Shown here in pieces: positions 6,139 to 44,096 of a stretch of 64,000 nt of DNA (positions are counted from its first letter, which is position 1; the number at the start of each line of letters is the position of its first letter). The position numbers and the translations under genes were made by a program. The stretch lies in the IMG/VR virus record IMGVR_UViG_3300005758_000043; one strand, 5' to 3'. The stretch comes from a virus. Lineage: Duplodnaviria; Heunggongvirae; Uroviricota; Caudoviricetes. The notes under the pieces were generated by a model that saw nothing but the letters and a program-made list of their open reading frames with translations, was not told the origin of the DNA and made no database searches.

Positions 6139-6150
6139 TGGAGTATTTGT

Positions 6151-6179
6151 AGTTTAGATGTTGTTGTTGTTTTTGTCAA
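6151..6179 (-). promoter_or_regulatory. promoter TTGACA-N17-TAAACT
   Basis: Upstream of the ATG at 6138. Confidence 0.45.
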
Positions 6180-6188
6180 GAGGTTTCT

Positions 6189-6539
6189 TCAAATCCATCC
6201 AAGATCGGGAATGATTTCGTCGCGCAAAATGTCGCGGCGAGCTTCGGCCCGATCATACTCGGCGTCAGTCCAATATTTAGTGGTTTTAAATTCCTCAATT
6301 TGGCCCTGATATTTTTCAATTAGGGCTTTAATTTTCTCTTTTACCACAGATCCTTCAGCTTTGCAAACGTCATATGGATAATGGTAAACTTTATTAATGA
6401 TGTTTCTATATTTGTAAGAAACAGTAACTTGCTTCTTACCAAAAGAAACGATTTCTCCAATTACCATACTTTTGCTGCCTGATCTGCGACAAGCTACAAT
6501 GTCACCAATTGCTAGAGGTCTATCGAAAATGTCTTTCAT
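6189..6539 (-). CDS. hypothetical protein
   Basis: 116-aa ORF. Confidence 0.4.
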   Translation of the reverse strand: MKDIFDRPLAIGDIVACRRSGSKSMVIGEIVSFGKKQVTVSYKYRNIINKVYHYPYDVCKAEGSVVKEKIKALIEKYQGQIEEFKTTKYWTDAEYDRAEARRDILRDEIIPDLGWI

Positions 6540-14408: not shown

Positions 14409-14855
14409 TCACCCTAAACCCATCGCAGACATCAAGCGTGAAACTTGGTTTCGGAGAAACAACATTGTTTTTTGAGTTTTTGACTGTATGATATTGCATT
14501 TTTGATTTGTTTGTTGCGACGAATTATCCACAACTTCAATTTTTACTTTAGCGATGCCCTGCTTATGGAAGCCAAGCTGTTTAGCAGCGGCCTGAGAAAC
14601 ATCCAAAATTCTTCCTTTGCAATAAGGTCCGCGATCTGTGATTTTGACCACGGCAGTTTTATTGTTTTTTAAATTGGTGACTTTAACCAAAGTTCCGAAT
14701 TTTAAAGTTTTGTGCGCGGCAGTTAATTTAGAATCCACAAGACGTTCGCCGCTGGCTGTTTTTGTGCCAGTTTTTGTAGAATAATGAGACGCAACGCCAA
14801 CCTCTGAACAGTTAGCAACTGCAATCATTGCAAGTAAAAAGAGTAGTTGTTTCAT
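14409..14855 (-). CDS. RlpA-like double-psi beta-barrel lytic transglycosylase domain protein, secreted
   Basis: Signal peptide, then ASHYS ... AAHKTLKFGT ... VTN ... ITDRGP ... ILDVSQAAA, the DPBB/RlpA pattern. Confidence 0.6.
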   Translation of the reverse strand: MKQLLFLLAMIAVANCSEVGVASHYSTKTGTKTASGERLVDSKLTAAHKTLKFGTLVKVTNLKNNKTAVVKITDRGPYCKGRILDVSQAAAKQLGFHKQGIAKVKIEVVDNSSQQTNQKCNIIQSKTQKTMLFLRNQVSRLMSAMGLG

Positions 14856-16382: not shown

Positions 16383-17591
16383 TTAATCCTTGTAAGGATC
16401 AAAGGTTTCTGAGCCAGCCATTGCTACTCCAATAGGAGTGAGAACATGGAGAATGCGAATAGTATCATGTTGAGCAAGCAAGACATCCCCCAGACGCTTG
16501 TAGCAATGTGGAGATTCGTCAACACCTGCTCCTCGCAAGACAACTCCTGCGCGATTAACCCATTCATCCATCATTGCCTGAGAAACCTTTCCTTCAGAAA
16601 TGCGAGTCTTTACTCCACCTTTCCACTTGACCTTGCCAGCCGCTTCATTTCGCGACATAACGCGACCTGCACCGTGAACGGTCGAATATAGAGAAGCAGA
16701 AGAAAATTCAGACTCAGCACCTTCAAGAATAACTGAGTTTTCTCCCATAGTGCCGCCGACAAAACCACGCTGATTAGGAAAAGCTGGAGTCGCTCCCTTG
16801 CGAACAACCCACAAATCTTCGCCACCATGATTTTCATACCAAGCAAAGTTATGATGATTATGAACTTCGTCCACAATATCCCCGCCAATGATGCGAGCAA
16901 CTTCGCGGCATACCCAATCGCGACCAGCGTAAGCATACTGACCAGCAAGATTCATTGCGGCGATGTATTCGCGGCCCAAATCAGAATTGGTGTCAAGCAC
17001 AACAGGATCTACAAACATTCCATCAGTTCCGCCACCAGCCTTGATATAATGCGATGCAATCTTATGACCAAGACCTCGCGATCCAAAGTGGACACCCACC
17101 CACACGCGACCCAATTCGTCATAAAAAATATCAACATAATGATTTCCAGAACCAACAGTCCCAAGCTGATTGCGAGCCATATCCTTTAGAGGCTTGATAG
17201 AATCAAGATCATTCCAAAGAGGATCGGAAAAAAGAGCATGATCTGAAACATCTTCTTGACCAGCGATATGTCGAGACTTTGAAACGCGACCAATACCGAA
17301 CGAAATATTTCTAGCTACTTCGTCCATGATGCGCTCCATATCCGATGCAATTTGTCCGTAATGAACATTCAATCGCACGGCCTTATTGCCACATCCAATA
17401 TCGAATCCAACTCCAGAAGGAGAAATACCGTTTCGATAAGCGACAACGCCACCGACAGGCACGCTATAGCCCAAGTGATGATCTGCCATTAGAGCAGCGC
17501 GAGCCGCACCCTTAGCAAGAACATTCTTCATTTGGTCAACGGCGTTCTGAATTGGTTCGCCAAAGATGGAGATGTTTTCAATCGTTTGCAT
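16383..17591 (-). CDS. rtcB: RNA 3'-phosphate/5'-OH ligase RtcB
   Basis: Motifs ADHHLGYSVPVGGV, GFDIGCGN and HGAGR. The ORF-track start (17615) lies inside the TTGACA/TATTGT promoter. The true start is the MQTIEN Met at ~17591, giving a leaderless mRNA. Confidence 0.8.
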   Translation of the reverse strand: MQTIENISIFGEPIQNAVDQMKNVLAKGAARAALMADHHLGYSVPVGGVVAYRNGISPSGVGFDIGCGNKAVRLNVHYGQIASDMERIMDEVARNISFGIGRVSKSRHIAGQEDVSDHALFSDPLWNDLDSIKPLKDMARNQLGTVGSGNHYVDIFYDELGRVWVGVHFGSRGLGHKIASHYIKAGGGTDGMFVDPVVLDTNSDLGREYIAAMNLAGQYAYAGRDWVCREVARIIGGDIVDEVHNHHNFAWYENHGGEDLWVVRKGATPAFPNQRGFVGGTMGENSVILEGAESEFSSASLYSTVHGAGRVMSRNEAAGKVKWKGGVKTRISEGKVSQAMMDEWVNRAGVVLRGAGVDESPHCYKRLGDVLLAQHDTIRILHVLTPIGVAMAGSETFDPYKD

Positions 17592-17597
17592 AAAGCG

Positions 17598-17626
17598 ACA
17601 ATACTCAAGATTCACTCAATTGTCAA
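17598..17626 (-). promoter_or_regulatory. promoter TTGACA-N17-TATTGT driving leaderless rtcB
   Basis: The -10 ends 6 nt before the ATG at 17591. Confidence 0.5.
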
Positions 17627-25793: not shown

Positions 25794-27290
25794 TTATTGA
25801 CCTTTTTCAAGAGCAATAATGTAATCAACCACAGATTCGCTCCAGCCATCCACATGTGTCCACTTTCCATAGCCTACACCATTTCTGTAAGAGGCCACAT
25901 TGATCATGTAAGCCTTATCAAAAACGGGATCAGGAACTCGGTCAGCAGATTGTTCATCTGTGATGACAATGAGGCGATCACCAGATCGAAGATTCATCTT
26001 CTTAACTGATTCACCAAGATAGGTGCCTTGGTGCTTCTGAGACTTGCTGATTGCTTCGGCAAGGGCGAAGCCCCTACGAGAAGGAACAAGCTTTGTTTCA
26101 TAAGAGAAGCTGTGGACTTCGACAGTGCTGCAAATTTCACGAAGAAGCATTGCAACACCACATGCAGCATCGAGACGAGAAATGTCGCTCTTGCCAGAAA
26201 CCTTGCTATGCATCGAAACCGAAATATCAACAAGGATAATAGTCTTGCCAGAAAGCTTTTCGTGCTTATCCAAGCTCTTCAGCATGGACTCTTCAAGTTC
26301 AGCTTCATACTTAGGCGCATTACGCGCAGCAGAAATAAAACGGAAAGGAAGAACACGATCAGTCTTCATGTTTACCAAACTTTCGCGGATCAACTTTTCA
26401 TTGACGCCAGCTTGTTCCATGTTGCGCAGATTTCGAAGAAGAGCCAAAGCTCCAAGCTTCTTCTCATTGAGAAGGCGAGTCCAAGAAGCCTTTTTATCCT
26501 TAGAAGCTGAGAGTTCAACTTCCCAAGTATCAGGAGTCTTGAGTTCATCGTTAACCAGACGCTTCCAAAGATCTTCCTGCGCCTTAGAATTTGGGCGAGC
26601 ATGAACCATGAAAAGAACATCCTTCAACTTAACGGCACCATCTCGATTGTATTTTGCCAAGGCATATTCATCGAACTTAGTGAAAGCAGTCGCAAGACCC
26701 TTCTTGACTTGATTAGCAATTGGACACTTTCCTTCCTTCCAATAAATAGAAAGAAATTCAGAAAGCTCATCTGCACGCTGGATGATGCGAGACAGAGTAT
26801 CAGCAACATATTCACGCTGCTTTGGATTTTGAGCCATGAGTCGCGCAATATACAAAGGAGTATGACGGAGCTTCATGTTTTCGCGAGCTTCAATAGCAAT
26901 TTCCATTGCTTCTTTGCCACTAACTTTTGCTACGAGATCCTTGATACGATCTGCGATAGTCACGCCAGATTCATAAAAAGAATTTTCCCACAACATACAA
27001 GCCATAACAGAACGTCGAAGTTCTTCAAGAGGCTTGATTCTTTTCGCTACCGCGCCTTCGTGAGTGCGAATTGGCTTCGGAGTATTTTTTACGTTGGTCT
27101 TCATGTCGTTAATTGTATCTATATTTTCCTCGTAGTCAAGGATTTCTTCGGAGATTTTTTGTTTAGCGGTTTTTCGCGCTGTTGTTTTTGATTTTTTCCA
27201 ATTATAAGTATTGCAAGTTTCACAACCGCAATGGTCGCTGGCATGAATGCCCAAGCGAGATTTTGAAAGTTTTTGTCCGTAAGGTTTCAT
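25794..27290 (-). CDS. rsr: Ro60 / TROVE-domain ribonucleoprotein with C-terminal vWA domain (Rsr orthologue)
   Basis: AKYNRDGAVKLKDVLFMVHARP aligns with the Ro60 TKYKQRNGWSHKDLLRLSH region. C-terminal vWA MIDAS motif ILVDISVSM. The ORF-track start (27344) overlaps tRNA-mimic element Y1, so the likely start is MKPYGQ at ~27290. Confidence 0.75.
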   Translation of the reverse strand: MKPYGQKLSKSRLGIHASDHCGCETCNTYNWKKSKTTARKTAKQKISEEILDYEENIDTINDMKTNVKNTPKPIRTHEGAVAKRIKPLEELRRSVMACMLWENSFYESGVTIADRIKDLVAKVSGKEAMEIAIEARENMKLRHTPLYIARLMAQNPKQREYVADTLSRIIQRADELSEFLSIYWKEGKCPIANQVKKGLATAFTKFDEYALAKYNRDGAVKLKDVLFMVHARPNSKAQEDLWKRLVNDELKTPDTWEVELSASKDKKASWTRLLNEKKLGALALLRNLRNMEQAGVNEKLIRESLVNMKTDRVLPFRFISAARNAPKYEAELEESMLKSLDKHEKLSGKTIILVDISVSMHSKVSGKSDISRLDAACGVAMLLREICSTVEVHSFSYETKLVPSRRGFALAEAISKSQKHQGTYLGESVKKMNLRSGDRLIVITDEQSADRVPDPVFDKAYMINVASYRNGVGYGKWTHVDGWSESVVDYIIALEKGQ

Positions 27291-27337
27291 AGAAAAAATA
27301 GGGAAATAATTAATTACAGGCTTTTTGAACAGGAGTG

Positions 27338-27420
27338 CTACCATTACACCATACTCGGAATCGAACCGAACCGCCCGTGGGATTATGAAGTAACTGCAAT
27401 TTGCGCCACCTAAAGAGAAG
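27338..27420 (-). ncRNA. tRNA-mimic module Y1 (candidate Y-RNA-like ncRNA) immediately upstream of the Ro60 start
   Basis: Read on the minus strand: conserved leader GTGGCGCAAATTGCAGTTACTTCATAATCC. Then a T-arm (TTCGG TTCGATT CCGAG). Then directly a tRNA 5'-half-like D-arm (TG GTGT AATGGTAG CAC). There is no anticodon arm, and T and D are permuted relative to a tRNA. Confidence 0.35.
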
Positions 27421-27439
27421 AATTTCAGGGAATAGGTAA

Positions 27440-27560
27440 AAACGGATAGTTTTTGATGCTACCATTACACCACAAGGCATCTACGCCCAGCTTGGATTCG
27501 AACCAAGACCTTTTATTTACCATAATAAAGAAGTAGCCGTTTAAAATCGCCACTGAAAAA
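27440..27560 (-). ncRNA. tRNA-mimic module Y2, paralogue of Y1
   Basis: Leader CAGTGGCGATTTTAAACGGCTACTTCTTTATTATGG. Then T-arm CTTGG TTCGAAT CCAAG, a small hairpin GGGCGTAGATGCC, and a D-arm-like TG GTGT AATGGTAG CA. Confidence 0.35.
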
Positions 27561-27689
27561 GTTTTTTATATCATTCCAACCTTCGATCAGGTCGCTTGCA
27601 TACTTCCAACACCTTCAACAAGGTCATAGGCCGAAGCCTCTCAAGCATACTACGAGTCTTTTCTGCACCCTCATTGCGAAAGCTGGAAT

Positions 27690-27800
27690 GATACAAAAAG
27701 TTTGAGGCAACACAGTTGAAACGGTGGTTTTTCCGAGTAATGAAGTAACCGTTTCATTCAGCACTCAAATCTGTATCTATTATGCCGATATTCTGGCGAA
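27690..27800 (-). ncRNA. third paralogous unit, Y3 (shares the leader motif)
   Basis: Minus-strand GAGTGCTGAATGAAACGGTTACTTCATTACTCGG aligns with the Y1/Y2 leaders. A C(UUCG)G tetraloop hairpin (GGCTTCGGCC) and an ATCGAAGG motif lie downstream. Confidence 0.25.
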
Positions 27801-27894
27801 AGTCAATCGGTTTTTGAGAAAATTTGGTGGGTTCCAGACTCGCAGCGACCGTTTCAGGCTACGATCCTGAATGCATGTCGATCTTTCCCCCATT

Positions 27895-28045
27895 AATTGG
27901 TGGACATGTTGGGAATCGAACCCAAAGAGTGCCGCCGCACTACTACCATTCAGCCCGTCGAGTGGACCGAGAGGGAATCGAACCCTCACCTACACCATGT
28001 CATGCCCAAAATTGGTGGACCGCAGGAGAGTCGAACTCCTGTCCT
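27895..28045 (-). pseudogene. Three tandem pseudo-tRNA 3'-end units (T-arm + acceptor 3' strand + A-CCA) lacking 5' halves
   Basis: Minus strand: TTGGG TTCGATT CCCAA CATGTCC A CCA; GAGGG TTCGATT CCCTC TCGGTCC A; AGGAG TTCGACT CTCCT GCGGTCC A CCA. No complementary 5' acceptor strands within 120 nt, even allowing G.U pairs. Confidence 0.4.
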
Positions 28046-28561
28046 CAACAAATTTGTATTAACCTTCAAACATGCTTATATTTGATTCGTCAAAGTGAAT
28101 CACTCTCAGGGACATTCGGTTCTTGGTAGTTCCTACTTTGTCCTCCACCAGTTAATTTTTAAACTGAAAAAATTAACAAACCCAGTTTTTGCTCGATTTG
28201 ATACTCAGAAAAGAGCGAGCGTTCTTCTGAGCGTGATACTTACGCAGCAGCGAGAGAAGCCTTGCGGGCAACTTTTGCAGACTTACGGAAGGTGACAACT
28301 TTGTTTTTGCCGTTTGTTTTTTTGAGCGGATTTTTAAGGAGCCATCCGATCAACTCCTACATGCTAGTTAATATTTCACTTATCAAGTCGAAACCAGAAG
28401 CGGCCCATTAATCTTTTAAAATAAGCATTTCATCATTACCGAGATCTACGACACCATCTGCTGATGCTTTTGCTTCTTTGAATTGATTGTAGCAAATTGC
28501 TACTGCTTGCTTATTATCTTTGTATTCTGAAGAAATCTGCGATACGCAGCGACTTACAAAT

Positions 28562-29191
28562 TCATTTCTTTTTTCTTTGTTTTTTGGAGTGGGAATTGGA
28601 GGCATTTTTATGTTCTTTCTTATGACAAATTACACATAATGTCAAGCCATTTTCTAAATTAAAACGCAAATCAGGATATTTAGACCATGGCTTTATATGA
28701 TGAGCATTCAATTTTCCACCTTTTTGTTCACAAAATTGACATGTATATTGATCTCTTTCAAAAACGTCTTTACGCCATGCAGAATATGGTCCTGATCGTG
28801 ATTGACTTTCATATCTTCCTATTTTTACTTTAGAACGATCTTGAATCCAATTAGGATGGTTTTCTCCTCTGATTTTTAATCCGCCTTTTTGTCGGGATTC
28901 TTTGGTTGCTTTTGGAGGTTTAGGAATTAAACCTTCGGCCATTTTTCGAGACAAACTAATGCCTGCTTTTTCGCGACTTTCTTTTGTCGGTATTGGGGGT
29001 ATAAAATTATTAATTTCTGCATTTTTAATTCCCATGCAAGTCCGAGAACAAAATCTTTTTCTTTCTAAATCTCTATTCAAATAGATTAATATTTTTTCAC
29101 CGCAATTTTCGCACTCTTTTTCTCCTTTAATTTTGTATCCTCGCGATGCGAAGTAATTTTCTGATTTATTTTTAGGAGATGGAATTGGCAT
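28562..29191 (-). CDS. HNH endonuclease
   Basis: C-terminal YTCQFCEQ ... AHHIKPWS ... NGLTLCVICH. Confidence 0.65.
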   Translation of the reverse strand: MPIPSPKNKSENYFASRGYKIKGEKECENCGEKILIYLNRDLERKRFCSRTCMGIKNAEINNFIPPIPTKESREKAGISLSRKMAEGLIPKPPKATKESRQKGGLKIRGENHPNWIQDRSKVKIGRYESQSRSGPYSAWRKDVFERDQYTCQFCEQKGGKLNAHHIKPWSKYPDLRFNLENGLTLCVICHKKEHKNASNSHSKKQRKKK

Positions 29192-30658: not shown

Positions 30659-30762
30659 TGGTAGGAGTGGTGGGAATCGAACCCACGTTACTAACGGCTT
30701 ATCTAGCCGTTGCTCTACGAGATTATAAGTTTCGCCCTATGGCCAACATTAGCAACACTCCC
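30659..30762 (-). ncRNA. Aberrant 104-nt tRNA-like gene with ~26-nt insertion in the D region
   Basis: Acceptor GGGAGTG/CACTCCT + A + CCA and T-arm GTGGG TTCGATT CCCAC are good. The anticodon-like hairpin ACGGC-UAGAUAA-GCCGT has A at position 33. The D region is 45 nt. Confidence 0.3.
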
Positions 30763-33867: not shown

Positions 33868-34287
33868 TCAATCCGTGGCTGCTTCTAAGCCAACCTCCTT
33901 TTGATTTTGAGAATGTCTTATCCTGTGACAGTTTGCACAAAGAAGAACACATTTGTCGAGTTCTTTCTTCACAGAATCAAATTTTTTTGCTTGTTTGCCA
34001 ATTGAAAAATCTTTTTTGCTAGGATCTAAATGGTGAAAATCATAAATAGATGGAATATCTCTTGATTCTCCACAATCAGCGCATTTTCCACCAAGATATT
34101 CTATAGCTTTTCTTTTTAAAGCCCTTCTTCGCTCGGCTGAAGTTTCTAATCTACAAGATTTGCAATAGCAATCCCAAGTATCATAAACTATACCATTATT
34201 ATAAGCTTTTTGAGGATAGAAGTCTTTAGTAGATTTCACCTCTCCACAATTCTTGCATTTTTTTTCTTTTAAGTCTTTTTTTGACAT
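33868..34287 (-). CDS. HNH endonuclease
   Basis: CKNCG ... YDFHHLDPSKKDF ... CVLLCANCHRIRH. Paralogous to 37879..38238 and 30809..31345. Confidence 0.65.
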   Translation of the reverse strand: MSKKDLKEKKCKNCGEVKSTKDFYPQKAYNNGIVYDTWDCYCKSCRLETSAERRRALKRKAIEYLGGKCADCGESRDIPSIYDFHHLDPSKKDFSIGKQAKKFDSVKKELDKCVLLCANCHRIRHSQNQKEVGLEAATD

Positions 34288-35516: not shown

Positions 35517-35614
35517 TGGTCGCGCAGGTGGGATTCGAACCCACGACGGTAAACACTCTTGTCCCCGCTACCTGATTCCAAGTCAGGCTCCTTACCAAGC
35601 TAGGCAACTGCACG
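35517..35614 (-). tRNA. class-II (long variable arm, ~98 nt) tRNA carrying anticodon UGG
   Basis: Perfect anticodon stem CCTGA/TCAGG with loop CUUGGAA, A73, ~26-nt variable region, Ser/Leu-like D-arm. Confidence 0.45.
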
Positions 35615-35699: not shown

Positions 35700-36099
35700 T
35701 TTAAAAACACTTCCCGAATTACGCTTGCATCAGAGGCGCGGGAAGTCAATCGAAAATTGTTATCTAAGCCCTGAGATTACAGGCTAGGGCGACCAGTCTT
35801 TCATAAGATTATTAAGCAGCATTCCAAGCCACTATTTCCTTACTTATCCACTACCTCTCGATAGTATCCAGTCATCGACGCCATTTTATGAATCGCTGGC
35901 ATTTGCGATTTACCGTTTACTCTACTCGATCATTTCTAGAACCTCGGAGGATGGCCGTCCTGCAAGATTTCCTTCTCTGATCAAACGCCTTGTGCTTTGC
36001 GAGCCAAGGTTCGCACAGAATTGCTTTCGCTTCTGTCTTAGTCGATTTTCGAGCGTTCGGGGTTACGTCTTTTGCTTTTAATATTTATACGTTGTTTAA

Positions 36100-36200
36100 T
36101 ATGCAACTGCCTTTACCCATTTGGCTACTCCCCCCGTCAAAGCATAAGCTGGATGCTCTGATGGCGGGGGAGGCTGGACTCGAACCAGCAAAATAAATGG
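36100..36200 (-). ncRNA. Permuted tRNA-like element with closed acceptor stem (Y-RNA-type tRNA mimic?)
   Basis: Minus-strand order: T-arm GCTGG TTCGAGT CCAGC, then acceptor 3' strand CTCCCCC-G-CCA. A 26-nt linker with hairpin GCAT-CCAGCTT-ATGC follows. Then the perfectly complementary acceptor 5' strand GGGGGAG, TA, and D-arm GCC-AAATGGGTAAA-GGC. It ends with AGTTGC ATATTAA ACAAC. Confidence 0.35.
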
Positions 36201-36230
36201 AAACCTACGTCAATGTGCGCAACCACGCTG

Positions 36231-36250
36231 CTCTCAAAATCTCTCAAAAT
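36231..36250. repeat. 10-bp tandem direct repeat CTCTCAAAAT x2
   Basis: Exact duplication in the 1-kb non-coding region. Confidence 0.5.
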
Positions 36251-36727
36251 CAAGAATACAACACATCAACTAGAATCAGTATCGCTACTTTTTCATCGCA
36301 GTCAAGACTACCCTCGATTTGACTCTCAGGCAACCTCTCAGCATGCCATTCGCCTTTGTATCTCTACTCTGACTTATGACTACCCTTTGAGATTCATGCT
36401 TTCAGACCCATTTGAGTTTTCCTTTCAGAACCAGCTACATCGTTGACCTCACTGTTTTACTCTCTTCGACCCGTAGGCTTCAACAACATAAGTTTTAATG
36501 GCTTATATTGTCGTATCTCTCGGCTTGCTTGGTGGGCTAACTTAGCGAACTAAATTAGTGGGCGGTGTAGGAACCTTATCCCTTTCCCAGAATCGCTTCT
36601 GGATTATCCTGTAATGCCCCCAAGCGGGCAAATTTTTTATGATATTAAAGAACTTTTTACGAAGGAAACTCTTTGTTTTCCCAAGATCGCTTTGAAGAAC
36701 TCTTAGTTCGTCGCGGCGATGTGATTG

Positions 36728-36755
36728 ATTATGCAGATATTTCTGATTTTGTCAA
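36728..36755 (-). promoter_or_regulatory. promoter TTGACA-N16-CATAAT firing into the 1-kb non-coding region and downstream tRNAs
   Basis: No ORF downstream; it reads into 35700-36714. Confidence 0.45.
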
Positions 36756-36772
36756 CCTGTTTTTTGAAAATT

Positions 36773-36847
36773 TGGTAGGCGCGGCAGGGATTGAACCTGC
36801 GTCTCCACCTTATCAAGGAGGTGCTACAACCACTCAGCTACGCGCCT
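36773..36847 (-). tRNA. tRNA-Ile (GAU)
   Basis: Acceptor AGGCGCG/CGCGCCT, D-arm GCTGAGTGGTTGTAGC, anticodon loop UUGAUAA. Confidence 0.65.
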
Positions 36848-36981: not shown

Positions 36982-37052
36982 ATTATTATAGGGAATGTTC
37001 TGATTTGGTATTTTTCGCGCTCTAACCACTGAGCTACGCTCTCACCTATGGG

Positions 37053-37130
37053 CAGTTGCGGCAGGATTCGAACCTGCGCCTCGTCTTTAGAATAGAAGTA
37101 ACCAACTCATGTCACCACTATAAATCTTTT
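37053..37130 (-). pseudogene. tRNA-Arg (UCU)-like fragment without a matching 5' acceptor/D-arm
   Basis: T-arm GCAGG TTCGAAT CCTGC, 3' end CGCAACT-G-CC, anticodon stem CTTCT/AGACG with loop AUUCUAA. Immediately downstream on the minus strand is an orphan tRNA 5' half (GAGCG TA GCTC AGTGGTTA GAGC). Confidence 0.3.
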
Positions 37131-40056: not shown

Positions 40057-40623
40057 TTAATGTATAAACCCTTCCCATTCCTTTCGAATCTTTGGAGCAT
40101 TCAGCATTAAAGCTGGAATTGCTGGAGCCGTAGGAATTTTCCCGTTTACGTCAAACCAAGGAGAGTGAGAACTTTTCTTGGTATTGCAAGGGCGACAAGC
40201 GAGAACACGATTTTCGTGATCATCTGTGCCACCTTTGCTTTTTGGCTTAACATGATCAATTGTCAAATCAGACAAAGGAGTTTTGGTAAGACAATACTGA
40301 CAAACATAGCCGTGAATTTTCGCAAGATCAAAAAGACTCAATTTCTTCTTTTTAGGACGGCGAAAAAACTTGCTCGTAACAACGATAATTGTTGGAATTG
40401 GCCAACAAGCTTTAGCACTTCGCAGCACTGGCTGGTCATCGTAAAATTCTGCGGATGAATTCCATGAATTTAGAGTATGAAACAATGCTCCATTTTTATC
40501 CAACGCGGTTGCATGGCCCTTCAGAAGATGGGTAAATGCGGTTCTAGCAGTAACCGTATTGATTGGCTGCCAAGCATTATTTAAAAGCAAAGTTGTTTTA
40601 TGATCTGAAGTTACAATATTCAT
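40057..40623 (-). CDS. HNH endonuclease
   Basis: CQYC ... DHVKPKSKGGTDDHENRVLACRPCNTKKS. Confidence 0.65.
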   Translation of the reverse strand: MNIVTSDHKTTLLLNNAWQPINTVTARTAFTHLLKGHATALDKNGALFHTLNSWNSSAEFYDDQPVLRSAKACWPIPTIIVVTSKFFRRPKKKKLSLFDLAKIHGYVCQYCLTKTPLSDLTIDHVKPKSKGGTDDHENRVLACRPCNTKKSSHSPWFDVNGKIPTAPAIPALMLNAPKIRKEWEGFIH

Positions 40624-41156
40624 CGCAGTTCTTGTTTAAATAATCTCCATCTATCGGAGTCAATTGATTTAATACCAGAATCAATATTTGTCAAGACTTT
40701 TTTTACTTCTTCAAAAGAATCGTAAATGTATTTATGAGGCAACATTCCTAATACCCAAAGAGGCGTATTCACTTTGCCGCCCTCGACAACAATAAAAACT
40801 GGCCTTTTCATGCGAACAGCCCAAGAAAGTTCTTCGACGGTTCCATAAGTTGGAATTTTTGGATTTAAATAGCAAATAATAAAATCGCTGCGATCAACCA
40901 TTGACAAATCAAAGGATCTAACTTGCTTAAAATGTTGAGCGACTTCATCGTATTCTCCACTTTTCATCAATTCAAACATTCGGTCATGAATGTTCTCGTC
41001 TTCTTCTGGAGCATTAATAAATGGTTTTTTATAAGGATCAAAATACGTTACGCCAATATTTTTCAAGAAATCAGCAATATCTTCACGCCACAATCGACCA
41101 TCGCCGTATTGCATTGGACCGATCAAATATGTTTTAGTTCCTTTTAATATGTTCAT
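40620..41156 (-). CDS. Nucleoside 2-deoxyribosyltransferase-like protein
   Basis: YLIGPMQ ... DFIICYLNP ... GTVEELSWAVRMKRPVFIV resembles the NDT/Rcl fold signature. Confidence 0.4.
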   Translation of the reverse strand: MNILKGTKTYLIGPMQYGDGRLWREDIADFLKNIGVTYFDPYKKPFINAPEEDENIHDRMFELMKSGEYDEVAQHFKQVRSFDLSMVDRSDFIICYLNPKIPTYGTVEELSWAVRMKRPVFIVVEGGKVNTPLWVLGMLPHKYIYDSFEEVKKVLTNIDSGIKSIDSDRWRLFKQELR

Positions 41157-41803
41157 AGGTATTCTGCGCAGTTTTTATCTCCTGCGTCATAGAGAGTTTT
41201 CTCTGATTTTGGATAATCAGAAATTTGAGAATATGCAAGCGCAGATTTCATGATCTTTTGCTCTTTTTTATTGCCAAGAAAATAAAAGTATCTATGCTTT
41301 GGTTTTGGAGAGATTCGTTCAATGCCGTTTTGAGTTGCCCATTGAGCAGGATTTGTTATGCCCAATTTATCACGAAGAGTAATTGGGTGGGTAGGAATGC
41401 CATCGACAACATAAAGTTTGTCATGCGATAAAGTAGCGCCTGTATATATCCAATTTGTTGCTTGATAGACAACGCCAGAATGACCATGAGCCGAATCTGC
41501 ATAGCTTACAATTGCGCAGGGCTTTGCAGAAAGAAGTTTGAAAGATTGAGAAATCAAAAAAGAAGCTGCGTTCTTATGACCAGAATCAACAACAAGACGA
41601 GTCAACTCGTAAAGACGGAAATCTCTATTTTTAAAAGCGTGTTTTTGAATTGCCGCAGAGGGCTGACCAAAACAACAAACTCCAATTAAAACATCATCTT
41701 TATAAAGACCAAATCCTTCCCAAAAGATTCCAAGCCTCCTAGAATAATGTTTATTTGATACAACTGCGTTTGCGATTTTTTTTGAAATTGGTTTGACAAT
41801 CAT
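41153..41803 (-). CDS. hypothetical protein (possibly GNAT/Mom-like modification enzyme)
   Basis: Conserved-looking blocks ELTRLVV and IVSYADSAHGHSGVVYQATNW; weak similarity only. Confidence 0.25.
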   Translation of the reverse strand: MIVKPISKKIANAVVSNKHYSRRLGIFWEGFGLYKDDVLIGVCCFGQPSAAIQKHAFKNRDFRLYELTRLVVDSGHKNAASFLISQSFKLLSAKPCAIVSYADSAHGHSGVVYQATNWIYTGATLSHDKLYVVDGIPTHPITLRDKLGITNPAQWATQNGIERISPKPKHRYFYFLGNKKEQKIMKSALAYSQISDYPKSEKTLYDAGDKNCAEYL

Positions 41804-42603
41804 TGCAATAGATATTCTTCGTCCAAGATGGTGCCATTATAGATCTTTCTAAAAAAGATGCAATCACTTTTTTCGCGAAAAACGTCAATTGTTCGATTGG
41901 TTATTTTGCAATATGTTTTTGGCTTTTCTCGATGCCCAGAATTTACCAAATATTTTGATGATTTTAAATACCAATTAAAATGGCAATTATTTTTATACTG
42001 AACTGGCAAATTAAAATGCCGAGCCATCAAATGAAAATAAATTTCATCGGGGAAACATAATTTATCAAGATTAAAAAATTTGCGAAATTTGATTTCGTTT
42101 TTTACAAAAACTTCTGCCGATTTTCTATCACAAACGAACCACTGAGAAACAAATTTGGCGTGAGATTTATCGAATGGATTTCTGCCCTTATCTTTTATAA
42201 GAGCATCAAGCCTAGATAAAGACCAAGATTCTTCCTTGGGTTGATTGCTAAAAGACAAAATAGGATAGCGATCAAAAATAATAGAATGCATTTTCTGCAT
42301 TCCGTAAAGAGGACAGTGGCTTTCACTGATTAAAACAAATTTTTCATTTTCTGGATTTTGTAAAGCAAACATTAAAAGCCTGACGGTAGCCAACACTAAA
42401 GAATATTTGCCCCATTGGGTTTCGACTTTGTATTCACTTGGTATCTCAAACTTTTTGAAAAAATCGCTGAGAATAGGATTTTTATTATGAATATAAAGAT
42501 TATATTTATCAGAATGCTCTTTAGAAAAGAAGCGCTCCATCAAATTTTCTTTATTAAAAGAAGAATTTGTCAAAGCAATGAAAGCCACTTTTTTATTCAT
42601 CAA
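41800..42603 (-). CDS. putative glycosyltransferase-like protein
   Basis: 267 aa; composition and neighbourhood only. Confidence 0.25.
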   Translation of the reverse strand: MMNKKVAFIALTNSSFNKENLMERFFSKEHSDKYNLYIHNKNPILSDFFKKFEIPSEYKVETQWGKYSLVLATVRLLMFALQNPENEKFVLISESHCPLYGMQKMHSIIFDRYPILSFSNQPKEESWSLSRLDALIKDKGRNPFDKSHAKFVSQWFVCDRKSAEVFVKNEIKFRKFFNLDKLCFPDEIYFHLMARHFNLPVQYKNNCHFNWYLKSSKYLVNSGHREKPKTYCKITNRTIDVFREKSDCIFFRKIYNGTILDEEYLLQ

Positions 42604-43436
42604 CCCAAATCAACATCAATCTTCATTTTTGAAAGTTCTTCACAACGATCAACAATAAATTGCCGAGCTAAAGATTCAGACATTTTACGAAGATTAGAAA
42701 TCTTCTTTGAAAAATTTACGAAATCTTTCGACTGGTTAATTTTAGTTTTGGATTCGTGATCGTATATAAACTCATCAAAAACTTCGTAACGCTTATTGAT
42801 TTGAGCCTCAATAGGATCAATAGTAGTATTTCCAACTACATACCGAAAAATATCATTCGGGTCAATCTTTACTAATGGCATCACTTATTTCGAAGATCAA
42901 ATACGATTTCGGAAGAAATCTCCTTATCATTTTCGAGCAGATGCTCGACAACGTAACCATTGGTTCGCTTTGCGCAATCTTTGGCCCAACCAAAACCGCC
43001 TGACAGTTCATTACTGTAAGACTGCTGATAATTGCCGCGAGAGTCATAAACCCGATACCTAGCCTTTTGCTTCATGTTTTTTGTTATTTATTTTTTTTTG
43101 TTTAATTGATCGGTGAGCAGTTGCTCTTTGATCGTGACGAATTCAGAATACTCAGAATCAGTAAAAATGTCAAGAGAAAAAATCTTCTAAATTAAAAATT
43201 AATTTCAATTGCAATTTTGCCTACGTTTACGTTATCGCTGATCAAACCTTTGATGATGATTGTTTTATTATTTACAAAAAAAGTTTCAGAGATTTCGATA
43301 ATATGTTTTTTCTCGTCAATAAAAAGTTCGTGAATTTTCTGCTCTAAATGTTTAATCGAAATGTCGATTGATTGAGACAAAGAAAAATGAGTAAAGTTTT
43401 CGCTGATGCCAATGATTTTTGCTTTCATTTTATATA

Positions 43437-44096
43437 TTAAAAAGTATATTTAAATTTTTCAATATCACGATAAAATATTTGCTCGACAAGTTTTCGCGAT
43501 TTGTCATTGTAATATTGTTTATAGTAATCGTGTTTGCTAGAATTGATATGAGGCAATTGAGCAGGAATATGCTGCACCGCCAAATCTTTCAACATCTGTT
43601 CAAAAGATATTTGAAGATTTTCAAATCGTAAAATTTGTTTTGGTTCAAATGGTCCCCGCAACCATTCAGTTTGATCTTGCACTGGAAAAAAATCGCTGGC
43701 TTTATTTTCAAATTTTTCTTTTGTAATTTCGCAAAAGCGCTCAAATGAAGGTTCTTCTTTTAAACCAAATAGTTTCCATAATTGCATTTTATTGCCAAAG
43801 GAATACATAGACACAAAACGATCCCAAGGATTTCTAACAATAGCAAAAGAATGATAGTCAGAACATCTAACAGGAAGAATATTTGCAATCTCAGCAGGTT
43901 TGGCATGAGTAGGATCAAACCATCCTTTATACAAAGGCTTATTCAGGTTCTTATGAAACAAAGAACTATATTTATTAACTAAATTGAAAGCCCCCAAATG
44001 CTGATAAACAGAGGTGCTTGCATTTTTAGGAATGCGAATGAAAATTAAATGAAAGACCCACCTTTGCTGTAAAGGTGGGATAAGAAACTCGTTCAT
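43437..44096 (-). CDS. Sulfotransferase-family protein
   Basis: IPKNASTSV matches the 5'-PSB PKxGTT loop, and RNPWDRFVSMY matches the 3'-PB RNPxDRxxSxY motif. Confidence 0.55.
   Translation of the reverse strand: MNEFLIPPLQQRWVFHLIFIRIPKNASTSVYQHLGAFNLVNKYSSLFHKNLNKPLYKGWFDPTHAKPAEIANILPVRCSDYHSFAIVRNPWDRFVSMYSFGNKMQLWKLFGLKEEPSFERFCEITKEKFENKASDFFPVQDQTEWLRGPFEPKQILRFENLQISFEQMLKDLAVQHIPAQLPHINSSKHDYYKQYYNDKSRKLVEQIFYRDIEKFKYTF

Follow-up and report, generated by a model that had tools for sequence, protein, structure and literature searches.

Which kind of RNA is made from a locus in which the two halves of a tRNA stand in reverse order? The locus lies on the minus strand of a 64,000-nt stretch of viral DNA (the window), where a T-arm and one strand of an acceptor stem precede the complementary strand and a D-arm, and a loop closes the acceptor stem. 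The window is part of a tailed phage of ~122 kb with tail genes present, and a JGI metagenome contig (L163) matches the window at 99.97% identity across 20 kb. ARAGORN finds 31 tRNA genes and a tmRNA in the window, all on the minus strand; the tmRNA (28013-28406) is of the standard kind and separate from the permuted module. A gene for RtcB is encoded at 16383-17615 and a gene for a TROVE-domain protein (Ro60) at 25794-27344, the latter on the same strand and in the same array as the module, ~9 kb away. The first-pass annotation had offered two readings of the locus, a circularly permuted tRNA gene or a tRNA mimic of the Y-RNA type, and each of them captured a part of what was found.

The minus strand from 36189 to 36109 matches that first description base for base. 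Read 5' to 3', the module starts with UUU (36190-36192), equivalent to the last variable-loop positions (U47/U48) of a tRNA. The two U residues immediately before the T-stem do not vary among six relatives (T4, T5), and by analogy with tRNA and YrlA (PMC4201824) the U48 region would pair with A15 in a Levitt pair. The T-arm GCUGG UUCGAGU CCAGC (36173-36189), which shows covariation at three of its five stem pairs, is followed by the acceptor 3' strand CUCCCCC (36166-36172) and by the unpaired discriminator G73 (36165) and CCA (36164-36162). A 26-nt spacer (36136-36161) is predicted to fold into a hairpin of 8-9 bp, UCAGAGCAU / AUGCUUUGA, which closes the acceptor stem and has conserved loop residues AGCUUA. 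A single G, G(-1) at 36135, stands directly 5' of the next strand (C59 and G60 of the module alignment are invariant). The acceptor 5' strand GGGGGAG (36128-36134) is the exact complement of CUCCCCC and forms Watson-Crick pairs with it at all seven positions. It leads through the connector U8A9 (36126-36127), invariant in all relatives, into the D-arm GCC AAAUGGGUAAA GGC (36109-36125) with its 3-bp stem and G18G19. This D-arm is of the phage tRNA-Leu type, and where its sequence is found in ordinary tRNA junctions it belongs to tRNA-Leu.

While these elements had been described correctly, the statement that no anticodon arm occupies the expected place did not hold. Directly after the D-arm and A26 lies an anticodon-type hairpin, GUUGC AUAUUAA ACAAC (36107-36091), with a 5-bp stem including a C.A mismatch at 31-39, a 7-nt loop, U33, A37 and the 'anticodon' AUU. 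With this hairpin the set of four tRNA arms is complete, and the permutation breaks the tRNA in its variable loop. When the module is un-permuted in silico with a variable loop of 3-6 nt, ARAGORN draws a complete cloverleaf at every length tried, labelled "tRNA-Asn(att)".

Chance as the origin of this arrangement, considered unlikely from the beginning, can be excluded because a strict scan for the layout finds one occurrence in the window and none in 100 dinucleotide shuffles, and because the homologues described below carry compensatory changes. Inspection of the sequence also revealed two AU hexamers around the module, AUUUAU (36193-36198) and AUAAAU (36088-36083), as the possible 5' and 3' strands of a closing helix, and complementary AU hexamers occur in all four modules of this type that are embedded in GOLLD RNAs. 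This helix is not retained as a supported element, since AU-only sequence is indistinguishable from chance and the statistics are weak.

The module is not a free-standing gene. In a permissive Rfam scan, a GOLLD RNA (RF02032) is placed at 35768-36271 on the minus strand, aligned over the full model (1-416) with 138.2 bits (E 5e-38), just below the curated cutoff of 150 bits. We attribute the lowered score mostly to an insert of ~80 nt between model positions 108 and 109, and this insert is the permuted tRNA-like module. It is embedded in the variable linker that connects the 5' domain of GOLLD to its 3' domain. Judged by homology, the host RNA is a GOLLD of ~950 nt, and it occupies a ~1-kb gap in the ARAGORN predictions (35700-36772) within the tRNA array. 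Its 5' domain (36199-36720, minus strand) was delimited by homology to other GOLLD loci and includes a hairpin at 36271-36208 that corresponds to positions 1-64 of the Rfam model. In nhmmer searches, window positions 36199-36780 are homologous to L324, L325, L326 and L331, and positions 36425-36654 to L025. The 3' domain (35768-36077, minus strand) begins with the conserved AAGCAAAAG and is covered by the RF02032 match; L163, which is near-identical to the window, is hit with 163.7 bits by an nhmmer profile built on GOLLD 3' domains. Upstream of the 5' domain, a sigma-70-like promoter (TTGACA-16-CATAAT, 36728-36755, 11/12 consensus matches) predicts a transcription start near 36720. Several features that characterise GOLLD are found here: a conserved 3' domain, a less conserved 5' domain joined to it via a variable linker, a phage origin and a neighbourhood of tRNA genes (cf. 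PMC12286853). The earlier description had overlooked that the element is embedded in a GOLLD. A DNA similarity search of positions 35700-36800 against annotated phages returned no match.

Cryo-EM of other members has shown that GOLLD assembles into a 10-14-mer nanocage with the linker in its interior (PMC12286853, PMC12990946). Ordinary phage tRNAs sometimes occur in this linker (PMC12286853, PMC12990946, PMC6582537). We surveyed the linkers of ~20 distinct GOLLD loci from viral contigs and found nothing tRNA-like in ~13 of them, while six contain a tRNA or T-arm in normal order, its 3' end flush with the AAGCAAAAG start of the 3' domain. Two GOLLDs (L025 and L180) have a D-arm sequence in common with the window module, but in normal order. 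Among the ~20 distinct GOLLDs examined, the permuted order was seen only in the lineage of the window. GOLLDs with an ordinary tRNA in the linker (J13/15) represent the same RNA family with the same insertion site between the domains, yet the consequences of the two arrangements differ. RNase P and 3' processing would release an ordinary tRNA and separate the domains, whereas in the window GOLLD each domain would keep its connection to the tRNA-like body, in which nothing but the acceptor end could open.

Sister phages were collected via homologues of a deoxyribosyltransferase-like gene ~4 kb upstream. In three of them the module occupies the same position in the linker: L324 (a Logan contig of 99 kb), with GOLLD domains 90% identical to those of the window, L331 (NCBI GCA_034680565.1; 74-77%) and L326 (NCBI GCA_964507955.1; 74-75%). 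In a fourth, L325 (a Logan contig of 92 kb with GOLLD domains 90% identical), the module has been cleanly deleted from an otherwise intact GOLLD; only UCAAGUAAU, a 3' remnant of the anticodon arm, is left in the linker. The module is therefore not essential for the persistence of GOLLD. Its identity to the window sequence in the three carriers (90%, 78% and 70%) tracks the identity of the GOLLD domains, so it was inherited together with GOLLD.

The four GOLLD-embedded modules align without gaps over 99 nt, and 99.1% of the alignment cells are paired compared with 37-54% in slid controls. Among these four sequences, seven pairs are changed on both sides, spread over five helices (T, acceptor, spacer-hairpin, D and anticodon). 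The acceptor accounts for double-sided changes at three of its seven pairs, the spacer hairpin shows a U-A to A-U flip in L326 and a C-to-U change in L331 that keeps a G.U pair, and the D-arm reads GCUU...AAGC in L326 and L331 with pairing maintained. The anticodon stem covaries at pair 30-40 (G-C, A-U or C-G). Sequence comparison shows the module to be a domain inherited with this GOLLD lineage, in which all five helices are held by compensatory change. Conservation is uneven along the domain. It is highest in GCCA (identical in the window, L324, L326 and L331), in the CG preceding G+1 and in the hairpin of the spacer; spacer and G(-1) together are conserved at 23-24 of 27 positions. The anticodon arm is the least conserved part (9-11 of 18 positions); its loop sequence is not conserved, and the 'anticodons' of the four orthologous modules all differ (AUU, UUC, UCA and ACU).

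These data bear on the first of the two original readings. As in the red alga Cyanidioschyzon merolae, a genuine permuted tRNA gene would give rise to a decoding tRNA: cleavage of the flanks at the variable loop and ligation, for example by the phage RtcB, would give a circle, and RNase P and 3' trimming would then open the acceptor. The complete set of four arms in permuted order, U33, a purine at position 37, an encoded CCA and the RtcB gene in the same window all fit this possibility. A decoding role, however, is hard to reconcile with an anticodon that differs in every sister phage, one of which has C37, while acceptor and discriminator are the same or nearly so. Excision would moreover sever both GOLLD domains, and the module has been lost in L325. 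In the permuted tRNA genes of C. merolae, other algae and Thermofilum, the linker-closed acceptor is opened by RNase P and tRNase Z (cited in bioRxiv 10.1101/312249). The 3' half is likewise encoded upstream of the 5' half in these genes. Algal and archaeal permuted tRNAs differ from the module in that they need a splicing endonuclease acting on a bulge-helix-bulge motif and are decoding tRNAs with conserved anticodons, whereas the flanks of the module are halves of a large structured RNA and its anticodon is not conserved. Inspection of the AU-rich module flanks by eye revealed no bulge-helix-bulge motif, and the splicing endonuclease is not known in bacteria or phages (bioRxiv 10.1101/312249). 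We consider a decoding permuted tRNA very unlikely.

Permuted modules also exist outside GOLLD. A search of viral contigs for the D-arm sequence yielded six distinct loci, all on jumbo-phage contigs of up to 470 kb, which share the order of T-arm, acceptor 3' strand, loop, complementary acceptor 5' strand, UA and D-arm. None of the six sits in a GOLLD. Their acceptor sequences are all different while complementarity is kept, with double-sided changes at all seven acceptor pairs and at three of five T-stem pairs; 94% of cells are paired compared with 31-48% in slid controls, and none of 500 shuffles reaches the observed score. The acceptor pairing noted at the outset is thus compensated in both sets of homologues. 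RNAalifold independently predicts the same four helices for the permuted modules. A covariance model built from the six relatives assigns 64-87 bits to true permuted units, including L195 and L196 from outside the training set, and less than 47 bits to ordinary tRNA-tRNA junctions. In the high-scoring group neither half is part of a complete tRNA, whereas in the low-scoring group usually both halves are.

Among these relatives, L188 and probably L182 have an open "anticodon" stem made by the flanks, as in YrlA. In L192, L191 and L197, the anticodon hairpin is closed as in the window, and un-permuting these modules gives cloverleaves for Stop(UUA), Ser(UGA) and Leu(GAG). The Ser(UGA) and Leu(GAG) anticodons of the free-standing L191 and L197 fit the class II type of the D-arm, which favours a permuted tRNA gene, but no tRNA could arise from those relatives whose acceptors are closed by GAAA or whose anticodon stems are open. 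A tblastn search for TROVE in the short sequence slices that contain the free-standing permuted modules gave no match.

Further pattern searches added no GOLLD-embedded case. Neither the exact T-arm/acceptor string nor the CCA-hairpin string has a match in IMG/VR. A pattern of T-loop and GOLLD anchor at permuted spacing retrieved only ordinary tRNAs or coding sequence from viral contigs, and the same was true in a metagenome scan, where absence weighs little as the scan missed the window's own JGI contig. With a GOLLD anchor, a scan of genome collections gave at least 120 chance matches, and profile search identified no GOLLD among the matches listed; a longer GOLLD pattern gave six chance matches in viral contigs, none of them a GOLLD by profile search.

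The module might also be neutral debris without a function of its own, in which deletions left the 3' half of a tRNA gene in the linker together with the 5' half of its tandem duplicate. tRNA debris exists in the array, where positions 37119-37019 contain a degenerate tRNA followed by an orphan 5' fragment, and normal-order tRNAs are found at the corresponding site in other GOLLDs. L325 shows that the module can be lost. Descent from dimeric tRNA transcripts is, furthermore, the published model for YrlA, an RNA described as similar to a circularly permuted tRNA with a closed acceptor (bioRxiv 10.1101/312249). Against an absence of function stand the retention of the module at the same site in GOLLDs that are only 74-77% identical, with every helix compensated and GCCA invariant, the position of both breakpoints exactly in the variable loop with every arm whole, and the recurrence of the same architecture in unrelated jumbo phages. 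Neutral debris appears quite unlikely to us.

The second of the two original readings, a mimic of the Y-RNA type, is right with respect to the core architecture. The module has in common with YrlA (RF02553) a variable-loop pyrimidine, the T-arm, a loop-closed acceptor, UA, the D-arm and residues for tRNA tertiary contacts. YrlA of M. smegmatis has a 7-bp acceptor and undergoes RNase P cleavage both in vivo and in vitro, with the 5' half bearing CCA (PMC4201824). The resemblance does not extend to the part of YrlA that binds Ro60. The alignment of the module to the YrlA model is confined to the T-arm, acceptor hairpin and D-arm and scores 21.7 bits against a cutoff of 69, and the YrlA outer stems, which contain the Ro60-binding helix, are marked as non-pairs in the alignment. 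In YrlA, the anticodon-equivalent stem leads to the Ro60 site, whereas the module has a closed canonical hairpin at this place. Its chain enters via the variable loop, while the ends of YrlA pair into the anticodon-equivalent stem and the Ro60-binding helix. Unlike YrlA, the module encodes an invariant GCCA and has an acceptor closed by a conserved 26-nt hairpin. Moreover, it is part of a ~950-nt GOLLD, whereas YrlA is an sRNA of ~110 nt encoded beside rsr. The Ro60-binding helix of YrlA carries a conserved strand motif, GNCGAAN0-1G (PMC4201824). A CGAAAG element in GOLLD was considered as its equivalent and rejected, being too short and not conserved. By comparison of sequence and predicted fold, the module would act in the manner of YrlA's tRNA-like domain without being a YrlA itself.

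A Y RNA of the phage's own Ro60 would nevertheless be conceivable if the module and the flanking GOLLD sequence tethered Ro60 to the cage. The TROVE gene, which shares array and strand with the module, invites this idea, as do the alignment of the module core to the YrlA model and a T-arm identical to that of a YrlA-like RNA beside a TROVE relative in L348. Aside from the missing outer stems and the score far below the cutoff, the genomic pattern argues against it. Y RNAs near relatives of this TROVE protein are canonical and YrlA-like, located 100-330 nt upstream, and carry GYUACUUC ~20 nt before the T-arm. This motif is absent near the GOLLD module, but three copies of it, along with several T-arm modules, lie in the 668-nt gap that immediately precedes the window's TROVE gene. 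These upstream modules appear to be better Y-RNA candidates for the phage Ro60 than the GOLLD module. Furthermore, a GOLLD lies within 10 kb in none of 17 viral loci with TROVE relatives. The module is probably not the partner of Ro60, and a tether of Ro60 to the cage seems to us highly improbable.

Two-piece tmRNA of alpha- and betaproteobacteria and cyanobacteria also shares an order with the module, from the T-arm over the acceptor 3' strand, CCA and an intervening segment to the acceptor 5' strand. In this RNA, the intervening segment is processed so that two pieces result, which are base-paired to each other and expose a free CCA end. Rfam matches of the module to beta_tmRNA (24 bits) and tmRNA_permuted (19 bits) reflect the shared order but are weak with respect to cutoffs of 47 and 84, and the tmRNA models align only over T-arm and acceptor. 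In contrast to two-piece tmRNA, the module has G3-C70 instead of the G3.U70 alanine identity pair, lacks a tag reading frame and pseudoknots, and possesses a true D-arm and anticodon arm.

We favour the view that the module is a complete, circularly permuted and non-decoding tRNA-mimic domain of GOLLD, which serves as a handle for tRNA-recognising enzymes and is probably a substrate of RNase P; on the evidence above, this is reasonably likely. It would be non-decoding because the anticodon is free to vary. By analogy with the related YrlA tRNA mimics, the module may fold into the tRNA L-shape, with the chain entering and leaving the domain at the variable-loop position. Since published cryo-EM data put the linker in the GOLLD interior, every protomer would contribute one tRNA-shaped domain to the cage interior, where this domain could act as a handle for enzymes that recognise tRNA instead of as a decoder.

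For such a non-decoding handle, the most likely first event would be an RNase P cut between 36135 and 36134, 5' of G+1. The 7-bp acceptor stem and the invariant GCCA would favour this cut, in analogy to YrlA of M. smegmatis (PMC4201824). It would nick GOLLD into a 5' and a 3' piece held together by the acceptor helix and by contacts between the D- and T-loops, in contrast to the normal-order tRNAs of other GOLLDs, which the same enzymes would release while cutting the domains apart. Two observations qualify this step. N(-1) is a G, which is not the residue preferred by RNase P and speaks against the cut. The spacer hairpin is among the most conserved parts of the module, which is unexpected for a segment that is excised and degraded and suggests that it is retained with a role of its own.

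A more far-reaching version supposes that RNase P and 3' trimming mature GOLLD into a two-piece RNA. The free, invariant GCCA-3' at the end of the 5' piece would then be a target both for the CCA-adding enzyme and for an aminoacyl-tRNA synthetase that acts independently of the anticodon, which would turn GOLLD into a compartment that presents tRNA ends or acts as a tRNA decoy. As part of this reading, a D-arm of class II type, combined with G73 and the long 'variable arm' that GOLLD provides, would resemble seryl identity. If it were true, the cage interior would display 10-14 tethered and possibly charged tRNA ends, for instance as bait for host nucleases that target tRNA or as a sink for tRNA-binding factors. 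We regard this version as unlikely.

The module combines two known kinds of RNA, a GOLLD with an embedded tRNA and a permuted tRNA mimic of the YrlA type. GOLLD and ROOL RNAs have reportedly been shown in recent work to form large RNA-only cages. The only hint to the function of these cages so far has been the phage tRNAs that are sometimes found in the inward-pointing linker. The permuted module adds a second and topologically different linker cargo, a conserved tRNA mimic that would not be releasable by normal tRNA processing. An invariant GCCA and a conserved hairpin without any particular anticodon point to tRNA shape and acceptor end, not decoding, as what matters in the linker. A search of one literature library found no account that links GOLLD with Y RNA, YrlA or Ro60, or that describes permuted tRNA-like inserts in GOLLD. 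Here, GOLLD is connected to YrlA-type tRNA mimics, and complete permuted tRNA-like genes are found scattered through the tRNA arrays of jumbo phages. This combination suggests links between GOLLD cages and tRNA-processing enzymes.

Two further features of the array were considered and set aside. A match to the YrlA core at 37019-37078 was rejected as a second permuted module, as it consists of the degenerate tRNA and then the orphan 5' fragment that make up the tRNA debris of the array. The gene for a 139-aa protein adjoining GOLLD does not serve as a synteny marker, since it encodes a mobile HNH-type endonuclease that occurs in unrelated tRNA arrays; an exact-protein look-up recovered it only from the same phage (L163).

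Permuted tRNA-like genes that stand free, outside the phage non-coding RNA GOLLD, occur in the tRNA arrays of jumbo phages. They are found at six contig loci, L192 (6062-6135, minus strand), L188 (10926-11050, plus strand), L191 (3731-3817, plus strand), L195 (3607-3679, plus strand), L182 (2484-2543, plus strand) and L197 (5582-5641, plus strand, with a second one at 6142-6208). Three of the six loci carry complete permuted cloverleaves (Stop-UUA, Ser-UGA, and Leu-GAG), in which the anticodon arm is closed and the flanking helices are long. ACCA is retained 3' of the acceptor in L192 and L188, and a 4-nt loop, GAAA in the case of L182, closes the acceptor in L182 and L197.

Permuted order also characterizes the interval between the tmRNA and the gene for the Ro60 (TROVE) domain protein (27345-28012, minus strand), which holds at least four orphan T-arm modules. 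One of these reads UUGGG UUCGAUU CCCAA CAUGUCC ACCA ...GACAUG, and two are followed by D-arm-like segments, GGUG UAAUGGUAG CAU/C. The motif GYUACUUC is present in three copies in this interval and also precedes RNAs resembling the tRNA-mimic Y RNA YrlA that adjoin TROVE relatives. The Rfam YrlA model gave no match to the T-arm modules at E<0.05. These modules are probably the Y RNAs of the phage. The annotated TROVE ORF (25794-27344, minus strand, 516 aa) overlaps the Y-RNA-like region with its N-terminus, and a comparable overlap of the annotated Ro60 N-terminus with the Y-RNA region has reportedly been seen in M. smegmatis. Because the tblastn matches to this ORF in 17 viral relatives all begin at residue 77-94, the real start codon probably lies near 27110. 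The window also encodes an RtcB RNA ligase (16383-17615, minus strand; PF01139, E 3e-64). RtcB, Ro60, Y-like RNAs, tmRNA and 31 tRNAs together give this phage a complete set of tools for RNA repair and translation.

Within GOLLD, the loop AGCUUA of the spacer hairpin that closes the acceptor of the permuted module (36145-36150, minus strand) is kept in all four GOLLD-embedded modules. Since its AGCU is palindromic, loop-loop contacts between neighboring GOLLD protomers inside the cage are conceivable, which is pure speculation. In the sister phage L325, the ~100-nt module is cleanly deleted from GOLLD (14660-14684). What remains of it is UCAAGUAAU, which represents the 3' portion of the anticodon arm, and this deletion offers a natural control for experiments. 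Just past the GOLLD 3' domain, a hairpin CUUCCCG...CGGGAAG is followed by UGUUUUU (35709-35745, minus strand). It matches the abiF motif weakly (25 bits) and received no call in a terminator scan; it is a candidate terminator for the GOLLD transcript.

The minus-strand array of the window contains further unusual tRNA-type elements. At 37019-37119, a degenerate tRNA (22.8 bits) with one acceptor-stem mismatch precedes an orphan tRNA 5' fragment, GCG UA GCUC AGUGGUUA GAGC, that is devoid of an anticodon arm; this region is tRNA gene debris. A ~100-nt element at 30659-30762 scores 38.5 bits with the tRNA model and 33.5 bits, end to end, with the tmRNA model, and ARAGORN makes no call for it. It may be a long-insert tRNA or a mini tmRNA-like RNA. 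A 98-nt tRNA-Pro(UGG) at 35517-35614, whose variable region is enlarged by a 22-nt insert, directly adjoins a normal 78-nt tRNA-Pro(UGG).

Three HNH-type endonuclease genes are scattered in the array (28562-29191, 33868-34287, and 40057-40623, minus strand). The 139-aa HNH-type endonuclease acts like a mobile element, as hundreds of homologs reside within unrelated phage tRNA arrays. A cluster of Mom-like, Branch glycosyltransferase-like, sulfotransferase-like and nucleoside deoxyribosyltransferase-like genes (40620-44096, minus strand) is conserved among sister phages and is likely a DNA hypermodification module.
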